Below the pieces are notes generated by a model that was not told where the DNA came from, made no database searches, and saw only the letters and a program-made list of their open reading frames with translations. The position numbers were made by a program, and so were the translations under genes. A stretch of DNA of 24,000 bases from Streptomyces sp. 846.5 (GTDB lineage: Bacteria > Actinomycetota > Actinomycetes > Streptomycetales > Streptomycetaceae): NCBI GenBank assembly GCA_004365705.1, contig SOBN01000001.1, positions 1,542,555 to 1,566,554 of the forward strand. The letters are read 5' to 3'. This document shows, one piece after another, positions 12,920 to 13,702 of the stretch (position 1 is the first letter of the stretch; each line of letters opens with the position of its first letter).

Positions 12920-13702
12920 TCAGCGCCCGCCGGGAACCAGTGCGTCAAGGTACTTGCGCATCGCCTCATTGCCGGCCGTCCGTGACGCCTCGGTACTTCC
13001 GTACTCGATGCTGTGCGACACCTTCATGCCGGAGGACATGTACTTGCTCATCCAGGCACTGCAGTTGACGCTGTTTGTACAGGGTGCTCTTTCCGTGTAG
13101 AGCTCGGTGACCCCGCCCGACGTCCCCCGCTGCAGGAAGGGGATCCCCAGCGCACGTTCGGAATGCGTGGGGTACATGCTGCGTCCGACCAGGATGAATC
13201 CTCCCGGGTCTCCGGGCTCGCCGTACCTGACAGCCGCATAGTTCTTGCTGGTGAACTTCTTCCCACGGTAGGTCCCGTAGTCCCCCGCCTCGTGCCGGGC
13301 CAGCTGGGTGGCAGCGGCCAGGTCGGTACTGCCGACCGGTACCTCGGCCGAGGCCCGCCGACGGCTCTCGCCCTCTTCGATCTTGGGCAGGTTGTAGGGG
13401 CTGTCCTTGCCGACCGGACGCTCCGGAACCCTGCTGTTGCCGTCCAGCCCCAGCGGCAGGGCCGCACGCTCCGCCTCGGTCAGCGGAACCGGCCCATGGG
13501 GGGTGAGCCGGTCGACCGCCAGGTCGTCGTTCAGACGGTAGACCGGGGTCTCCCCGATCTTCCCGTGCAGGTCCTGGCGGGCCTTGTCGAGGGCCGCCAT
13601 TCTTGCCTCATGCTCGGCGTCGGCCGCGGCGGTGTTCTCGGCTACATCGACGGCCCCCTTCTCGGTGTCCTTGAGGATTCCGTGGTAGGCGTCGGTGAAC
13701 AT
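12920..13702 (-). CDS. Polymorphic-toxin C-terminal module: helical linker plus DddA/SCP1.201-like cytidine-deaminase-fold toxin domain
   Basis: Zinc/catalytic motif H180-S-E182 (nt 13157-13165) and P-C208-x5-C214 (nt 13061-13081). The E-to-first-Cys spacing of 26 equals what I recall for DddA (E1347 to C1373). The gene sits upstream of SUKH-4 genes. Coding signal continues upstream in the -1 frame to ATG 13766 (MSEIAEVFSGAAKKIGKAVVKD), so the ATG at 13702 may not be the ancestral start. Confidence 0.7.
   Translation of the reverse strand: MFTDAYHGILKDTEKGAVDVAENTAAADAEHEARMAALDKARQDLHGKIGETPVYRLNDDLAVDRLTPHGPVPLTEAERAALPLGLDGNSRVPERPVGKDSPYNLPKIEEGESRRRASAEVPVGSTDLAAATQLARHEAGDYGTYRGKKFTSKNYAAVRYGEPGDPGGFILVGRSMYPTHSERALGIPFLQRGTSGGVTELYTERAPCTNSVNCSAWMSKYMSSGMKVSHSIEYGSTEASRTAGNEAMRKYLDALVPGGR

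Follow-up and report, generated by a model that had tools for sequence, protein, structure and literature searches.

The DNA analyzed here is a 24,000-nucleotide stretch of contig SOBN01000001.1 from Streptomyces sp. 846.5 (hereafter the window; G+C content, 71%), which encodes on its minus strand a 260-amino-acid protein with deaminase motifs. We conclude that the region carrying these motifs is very probably the catalytic center of a zinc-dependent deaminase of the XOO_2897-like family (PF14440) that acts on cytosine in nucleic acids. In this reading, the protein is the toxin in a polymorphic toxin-immunity operon of actinobacteria that is linked to the type VII secretion system (T7SS). The open reading frame (ORF) matches, at 100% identity, a GenBank protein of the same strain (P0001), whose NCBI name is [quoted passage not shown] An initial annotation, made from the sequence alone, had described the same residues as a deaminase active site with DddA-like spacing and an unusual zinc knuckle. 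The toxin and its key residues are located as follows.

12920..13702, minus strand: ORF of the deaminase toxin, 260 amino acids on translation
12932..13339, minus strand: deaminase core, residues 122-257, predicted as a1, b1, b2, a2, b3, a3, b4, a4 (a, alpha-helix; b, beta-strand), with no b5
13157..13165, minus strand: H180-S-E182, predicted zinc-ligand histidine and catalytic glutamate at the N terminus of helix 2, aligned with HAE of the dCMP deaminase 2hvv
13091..13093, minus strand: E204 in Y-T-E-R, ahead of P-C, an XOO_2897-clade signature (Iyer et al. 2011, Table 1) conserved in 145/146 family members
13061..13081, minus strand: C208-TNSVN-C214, two predicted cysteine zinc ligands with a five-residue loop between them
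13001..13015, minus strand: H230 (strand 4) to Y234, from the alignment of relatives and Table 1 of Iyer et al. 2011

The protein matches the Pfam profile of XOO_2897-like deaminases, PF14440, with an E value of 9.1e-13 and 48.6 bits (gathering cutoff, 27), over residues 152-249 of the protein and positions 2-99 of the 101 in the profile. With the Pfam limit raised to an E value of ≤10, no family besides PF14440 was found for the toxin protein, and this includes the DddA-like family PF14428 discussed below; NCBIfam gave no matches for any of the five operon proteins. Translation confirmed H180-S-E182, C208, and C214 at the nucleotides first assigned to them (codons 13081-13079 for C208 and 13063-13061 for C214), with 26 residues from E182 to C208. 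The nucleotide ranges given at that time cover H-S-E and C208 to C214, whereas T179 and A206-P207, listed with the same motifs, fall just outside them. To examine conservation, we built a profile from 25 homologues and compared it with 1.84 billion representative proteins, which gave 421 matches at an E value of ≤1e-3; the best 150 of these 421 and 47 close homologues amounted to 189 distinct sequences, of which 146 span the active site. The histidine is conserved in 143 of these 146 members, the glutamate and the first cysteine in 145 each, and the second cysteine in 143. Since these four residues are nearly invariant and the PF14440 match lies above the cutoff, the motifs are, at the level of sequence, a genuine zinc-deaminase active site and no chance match. 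The proposal of a deaminase-toxin catalytic domain is thus borne out, with H180, E182, C208, and C214 as the conserved HxE and PC..C zinc and catalytic residues.

The XOO_2897 clade was placed in the Helix-4 division of deaminases by Iyer, Zhang, Rogozin & Aravind (2011; PMC3239186), who described for it a glutamate in the insert that separates strand 3 from helix 3, a truncation after helix 4 that leaves strand 5 absent, T7SS among its delivery routes, SUKH-4 immunity, and Actinobacteria among its hosts. All features of the clade that we looked for are found here, namely E204, Y234, the absence of strand 5, SUKH-4 genes, and a WXG100_2 gene, the last interrupted by a TAG codon. The Y234 column holds Y in 125/146 and F in 9/146 family members. 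With the rest of the family, the toxin shares its sequence motifs (HSE, Y-T-E-R-x-P-C, a C-x(4-8)-C loop of variable length, and an aromatic residue ahead of helix 4), the lack of strand 5, immunity of the SUKH-4 type, delivery of the T7SS/WXG type, and its occurrence in Actinobacteria. Nothing essential sets it apart; its subclade, of the Streptacidiphilus/Kitasatospora type, keeps WXG100_2 on a separate, overlapping gene instead of fusing it, and adds a beta-rich N-terminal subdomain of ~70 residues for which there is no Pfam model. The toxin is therefore an ordinary representative of this APOBEC-like clade, whose description dates from 2011, and GenBank already annotates it as a polymorphic-toxin deaminase.

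AlphaFold2 models were made of the full-length protein (25 homologues; pLDDT, 87.7; pTM, 0.84) and of the domain comprising residues 122-257 (52 diverse relatives; pLDDT, 93.5; pTM, 0.87). In full-length numbering, the predicted elements are helix 1 (127-139), two strands (155-160 and 169-174), helix 2 (181-192, with H180 as its N-cap), strand 3 (198-205), the Cys loop (208-214), helix 3 (215-221), strand 4 (227-232), and helix 4 (238-255), after which the protein ends. Of the two cysteines, C208 falls in the loop that follows strand 3, and C214 stands directly ahead of helix 3. A structure prediction had been proposed in the initial annotation as a means of seeing which residues coordinate zinc, and the models place H180 at helix 2 and C208/C214 before helix 3, that is, at the three positions predicted to hold the zinc ligands of the deaminase fold, with E182 as the predicted proton-shuttling glutamate. 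A common metal site for H180, C208, and C214 is suggested by topology, invariance, and motif-level alignment, not by distances. The segment that had been taken for a tail of roughly 45 residues is no appendage, as it is predicted to form helix 3, strand 4, the Y234 loop, and helix 4, all integral to the Helix-4-division fold; in both models these C-terminal 46 residues end with helix 4, with no strand beyond it.

Upstream of the catalytic core, the models contain two further modules.

13556..13702, minus strand: N-terminal long helix, residues 1-49 (helix predicted for 3-49), a putative delivery or partner-binding module
13340..13555, minus strand: beta-rich N-terminal subdomain and linker, residues 50-121, with strands at 54-57, 62-67, and 70-73

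Profile positions 1-65 match the N termini of actinobacterial RHS proteins (P0106/P0114/P0120), and the N-terminal helix of ~65 residues (13556-13766) also heads RHS/DUF6531 toxins of up to 1400 amino acids (P0106, P0114, P0120, P0150, and P0159). This sharing suggests that the helix is a common signal, used with WXG100_2 proteins, for partner binding or export. The beta-rich subdomain has a pLDDT of 91-97 over residues 51-100, and no Pfam match was found for residues 50-121; from profile position ~65-76 onward, it travels with the cassette in long polymorphic toxins, such as one of 6273 amino acids (P0057).

Next, we asked whether the spacing of the two cysteines, initially called unusual because it is C-x5-C, is a peculiarity of this protein. 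Among the 143 family members with both cysteines, the gap is x2 in 3, x3 in 1, x4 in 8, x5 in 61, x6 in 57, x7 in 4, x8 in 8, and x10 in 1, so that x5 and x6 together account for 118/143. A wide, variable loop is thus the rule in the PF14440 family, and C-x2-C is the exception (3/143). A close homologue (P0039) carries a canonical C-x2-C (C-T-S-C) in the same alignment columns as C208 and C214, which shows that the two ligands are the same and that the additional residues have been inserted as a loop. In the toxin, five residues separate the cysteines and form an enlarged loop beside the pocket, a family trait rather than an anomaly. Similar variation is known elsewhere in the superfamily: a CxxxxxC signature is listed for APOBEC4, and inserts within CxxC occur in RibD, ADAR/Tad1, and novel AID/APOBEC-like proteins (Iyer et al. 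2011, PMC3239186, with APOBEC4 in Table 1). When the single toxin sequence was searched against PDB chains, no deaminase was matched; with the 52-sequence family profile, the dCMP deaminase of Streptococcus mutans (2hvv) was the sole match and a weak one (E = 0.34). In that alignment, HSE falls on HAE, the PC-x6-C of the family falls on PC-IN-C via a four-residue gap, and the distance from the glutamate to the first cysteine in 2hvv is also 26 residues. This distance had been taken as a mark of DddA likeness; since a dCMP deaminase shares it, it is instead a generic property of helix 2, the turn, and strand 3.

The nearest solved structures are those of AID/APOBEC enzymes, which occupied all of ranks 1-29 when the domain model was compared with the PDB by Foldseek (best match, APOBEC3H 5w45; E = 2e-3; probability, 1.0; TMq, 0.49). 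In the classic AID/APOBEC signature, 23 to 28 residues separate the glutamate from the proline. Set against H-x-E-x(23-28)-P-C-x(2-4)-C, the toxin's E-P gap of 24 lies within the range, whereas its cysteine gap of 5 lies outside x2-4. The toxin has in common with these enzymes the H-x-E...P-C...C arrangement and the aromatic residue in the loop joining strand 4 with helix 4, and with APOBEC4 in particular its C-x5-C spacing (Iyer et al. 2011, Table 1). However, it lacks strand 5 and the two terminal helices and so does not have the five-stranded sheet that defines AID/APOBEC; these are, moreover, vertebrate editing enzymes, in contrast to the bacterial toxin, which is presumably secreted and has an immunity protein. 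An hhalign comparison of the family profile with AID gave a probability of 1%, which, for a single-sequence target and hence low power, says merely that the two are not close.

To place the toxin in its operon, we compared the window locus with the neighborhoods of its relatives. The neighboring genes are as follows.

13763..14485, minus strand: WXG100_2-type partner gene (PF25547), 240 amino acids in relatives
13700..13766, minus strand: ancestral toxin start, with ATG at 13766 overlapping the upstream TGA (ATGA); encodes MSEIAEVFSGAAKKIGKAVVKD, in another frame
12270..12851, minus strand: SUKH-4 immunity protein, 193 amino acids, intact (PF14435, E = 4.8e-32), in the same place in L001/L003/L005
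11461..12273, minus strand: second SUKH-4 gene (PF14435, E = 2.2e-13), in relatives a fusion with an XOO_2897 deaminase

The orthologous toxin of Streptacidiphilus (L001) and Kitasatospora (L003/L004) has 283-314 amino acids, and the gene order there is a 240-amino-acid WXG100_2 protein, an ATGA overlap, the toxin, SUKH-4, a SUKH-4::XOO_2897-deaminase fusion, and an AAA/WD40 protein of ~590 amino acids. The order WXG100_2-deaminase-SUKH-4 is kept in L001 and L003-L006, and L007 has the same genes with two gene pairs swapped. In many Streptomyces, WXG100_2 and the toxin form a single protein of 520-580 amino acids, which ties the partner gene to toxin delivery. The deaminase cassette is also found at the C terminus of WXG100_2, RHS, eCIS-core, annexin-repeat, and Hcp-linked proteins, and the toxin is a textbook polymorphic-toxin cassette. 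As in T7SS toxins that have targeting modules of the WXG100/LXG type and small, helical partners, a toxin with a helix at its N terminus is encoded downstream of, and in translational coupling with, a WXG100_2 protein, to which it is fused in other species; the partner differs, being a WXG100_2 protein of 240 amino acids and not a WXG100 protein of ~100 amino acids or of the Lap type. T7SS core genes were not found within the window. In L005, a T7SS_signal protein is encoded near the operon.

In the relatives, the second SUKH-4 domain is fused to a second complete XOO_2897 deaminase (L001, 6463-7374; L003, 6637-7503; L005, 6001-6777; L007, 6001-6891). Homologues of this fusion form 103 clusters across Streptomycetaceae, with HPE and C-x6-C motifs, the latter as C-[FY]-[ML]-P-G-H-Y-C; H and E are conserved in 103/103 each and each Cys in 102/103. 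The fusion adjoins a WD40 protein of ~600 amino acids with an AAA-like N terminus in 4/4 neighborhoods examined. Fusions were retrieved only when the fusion protein itself served as the query, and mid-sized matches of the toxin family (P0093 to P0164), considered as candidate SUKH-4 fusions, included none. It is odd for an immunity protein to be fused to a toxin whose active site is intact, and no description of this fusion was found in the literature searched.

At the window locus itself, a DNA alignment with L001 (88% identity), complemented by a protein alignment for the second SUKH-4 gene, revealed three lesions. An in-frame TAG at 14165-14167, in place of GAG (Glu) in L001, splits the WXG100_2 gene into ORFs of 106 and 127 amino acids. 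One extra base at 13700-13701 (GAT-G-TTC, compared with GAC-TTC in L001) causes a frameshift after codon 22 of the toxin. Homologues begin with MSG-EIHEVFKDAATKVGKGLVKD-FTDAYHG, whereas the annotated 260-amino-acid ORF starts at an internal ATG with no obvious ribosome-binding site, and its delivery helix is missing the first 22 residues. We considered whether ORFs 14485..14165, 14146..13763, and 13702..12920 together represent one read-through toxin and rejected this, as in the relatives there are two genes, overlapping at ATGA, and the toxin start lies in another frame. The second SUKH-4 gene breaks straight after its own H216-P-E218 and continues with 52 unrelated residues; among the 103 fusion homologues, PF14440 is absent from this window copy (P0198) alone. 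The WD40 gene of the relatives is absent, with a MazE-like ORF in its place. This replacing segment (11210-11620, minus strand) carries, after the foreign 52-residue C terminus, a 75-amino-acid ORF for a MazE/AbrB-type antitoxin (PF04014, E = 3e-7) and stands where L001 has WD40 and APH genes between the operon and a gamma-glutamyltranspeptidase gene. A PIN/VapC fragment was suspected in the foreign C terminus of ORF 11461..12273, for which no Pfam match was found at E ≤10; the suspicion is unconfirmed. Compared with L001, dN/dS is 0.16-0.25 in all four genes, which shows that purifying selection acted until recently, so that the lesions are either recent or assembly errors.

Several explanations other than an XOO_2897-like deaminase toxin have to be weighed. 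The one proposed initially, that the domain is a divergent DddA/SCP1.201 subclade, possibly a double-stranded DNA (dsDNA) deaminase with a modified zinc knuckle, appears to us highly improbable. The figures given for DddA were right (HVE...(26)...CGFC, checked against PDB 6u08), both proteins are bacterial toxin deaminases of the same superfamily and share HxE with 26 residues to the first cysteine, and DddA is present among the Foldseek matches of the domain model. It first appears there only at rank 30 (E = 0.047; TMq, 0.33), below the AID/APOBEC structures, and with the full-length model at rank 50 (E = 2.1), and the 26-residue spacing, as seen above, is found in a dCMP deaminase too. A DddA control sequence, identified by a full-length match to PDB 6u08 (E = 5.5e-92), matched PF14428 (SCP1.201; Pfam name, “DddA-like”) at E = 2.2e-29, in contrast to the toxin, which has no match to this profile at E ≤10. 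BLASTP between the toxin and DddA gave nothing significant and no match over the active site (E = 22), and hhalign of the 52-sequence family profile with DddA gave a probability of 3%, which again, with a low-powered single-sequence target, means merely that they are not close. The flanking likeness that had been noted dissolves on inspection: in DddA, YP stands eight residues ahead of the histidine (YPNYANAGH), compared with YPTH in the toxin, and G-I-S-E lies at E+11..14 in DddA, compared with G-V-T-E at E+15..18 in the toxin, four residues out of register. SCP1.201 was defined by [HD]xEx[KQ] in helix 2, an Asn ending strand 3, and Imm1/Imm4 immunity (PMC3239186). The toxin has H-S-E-R-A and ...ELYTER-APC where DddA has H-V-E-G-Q and ...VFHNN-PEGTC, and both genes downstream of it are SUKH-4 rather than Imm1/Imm4 (DddI-type). 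Likewise, DddA (BaDTF1) belongs to the C-terminal hairpin division, in which strands 4 and 5 have no helix 4 between them, and has C-x2-C, whereas the models of the toxin show strand 4, the long helix 4, and then the end, the Helix-4 architecture. DddA is delivered by the type VI secretion system, according to the title of PDB entry 6u08. A genuine SCP1.201 (DddA-like) deaminase does occur in L001, at the C terminus of a 2257-amino-acid RHS/PT-HINT toxin followed by Imm1 (1-1189). The orthologous operon begins ~4 kb downstream of it, beyond a DDE transposase; the window has no such toxin, and a GH65 gene is the neighbor there.

The assignment to the XOO_2897 family leaves room for two other questions, on what the toxin acts and whether this copy still functions. 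The toxin would be exported together with the upstream WXG100-like protein and would act on competitor cells by deaminating cytosines in their DNA, most likely in its single-stranded form (ssDNA), and the SUKH-4 protein encoded just downstream would protect the producer. An action on RNA (tRNA or mRNA), free nucleotides, or dsDNA instead of ssDNA seems unlikely to us. It is true that the superfamily includes tRNA, mRNA, and nucleotide deaminases (Iyer et al. 2011), that a dCMP deaminase is the top PDB match by sequence, and that the enlarged Cys loop and the extra N-terminal beta subdomain could reshape the pocket. However, XOO_2897-clade members fused to Cas9 nickase showed ssDNA cytidine deaminase activity in a 2023 screen (bioRxiv 10.1101/2023.05.21.541555), the nearest structures are ssDNA/RNA-editing AID/APOBEC enzymes, and a nucleic-acid cytosine target was predicted from the shared loop joining strand 4 with helix 4 (PMC3239186). 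As for function, it is tempting to regard this copy as a relic with an intact catalytic domain, in which three recent lesions disable export or expression and which leaves the locus mainly an immunity island; to this we would give a little less than an even chance. The nonsense codon in the partner gene, the loss of both 22 N-terminal codons and the ATGA coupling, and the truncated second SUKH-4 gene with its absent WD40 neighbor argue for it, as does the full-length first SUKH-4 gene, and an assembly or long-read error is less likely for a substitution and an insertion outside a homopolymer run. On the other hand, all catalytic residues are intact with a dN/dS of 0.25, the internal ATG at 13702 could still yield a 260-amino-acid product, and the lesions, seen in a single assembly, may be sequencing errors. 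Some points also weigh against our overall interpretation as a T7SS-linked XOO_2897-like deaminase toxin. The zinc geometry is deduced from predicted secondary-structure positions and conservation; the ssDNA substrate is transferred from clade members outside this actinobacterial subclade; and errors in the assembly could account for both the nonsense codon and the frameshift. In addition, a search of PDB chains with the whole protein and the 52-sequence profile found no solved XOO_2897-family structure, and the Foldseek matches in the PDB are weak, with none at E ≤1e-3 and TM values of ≤0.5, which places the clade far from any solved structure.

Taken as an XOO_2897-like toxin, the protein resembles SsdA (DYW-like, BaDTF2) and BaDTF3, which are described as toxin-immunity deaminases of interbacterial antagonism that have been used as base editors. 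Both belong to other clades, DYW-like in the case of SsdA and, as inferred from the table of Iyer et al., Pput_2613-like in that of BaDTF3, and both have solved structures, in contrast to the XOO_2897 family. A bolder reading, which we consider unlikely, has two parts: the Cys-x5/6-Cys loop and the beta subdomain would cap the pocket and give a substrate or context preference unlike that of APOBEC, DddA, or SsdA, and the strictly conserved SUKH-4::deaminase fusion that always accompanies the toxin in the relatives, together with WD40, would constitute a second, self-inhibited deaminase system. If true, the capped pocket would offer a useful new base-editor scaffold.

The main value of these results is that they avert a mis-filing of the toxin as a DddA-like dsDNA deaminase with an odd zinc site. 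The XOO_2897 clade is thinly studied, with one ssDNA screen and no solved structure, and a well-behaved actinobacterial member could serve base editing; the window copy, however, lies in a locus that carries three disabling lesions. In Streptomyces sp. 846.5, the toxin-immunity system appears to be degrading, and the part that may be worth more study is the operon of its relatives, with its toxin, SUKH-4 protein, SUKH-4::deaminase fusion, and WD40 protein.

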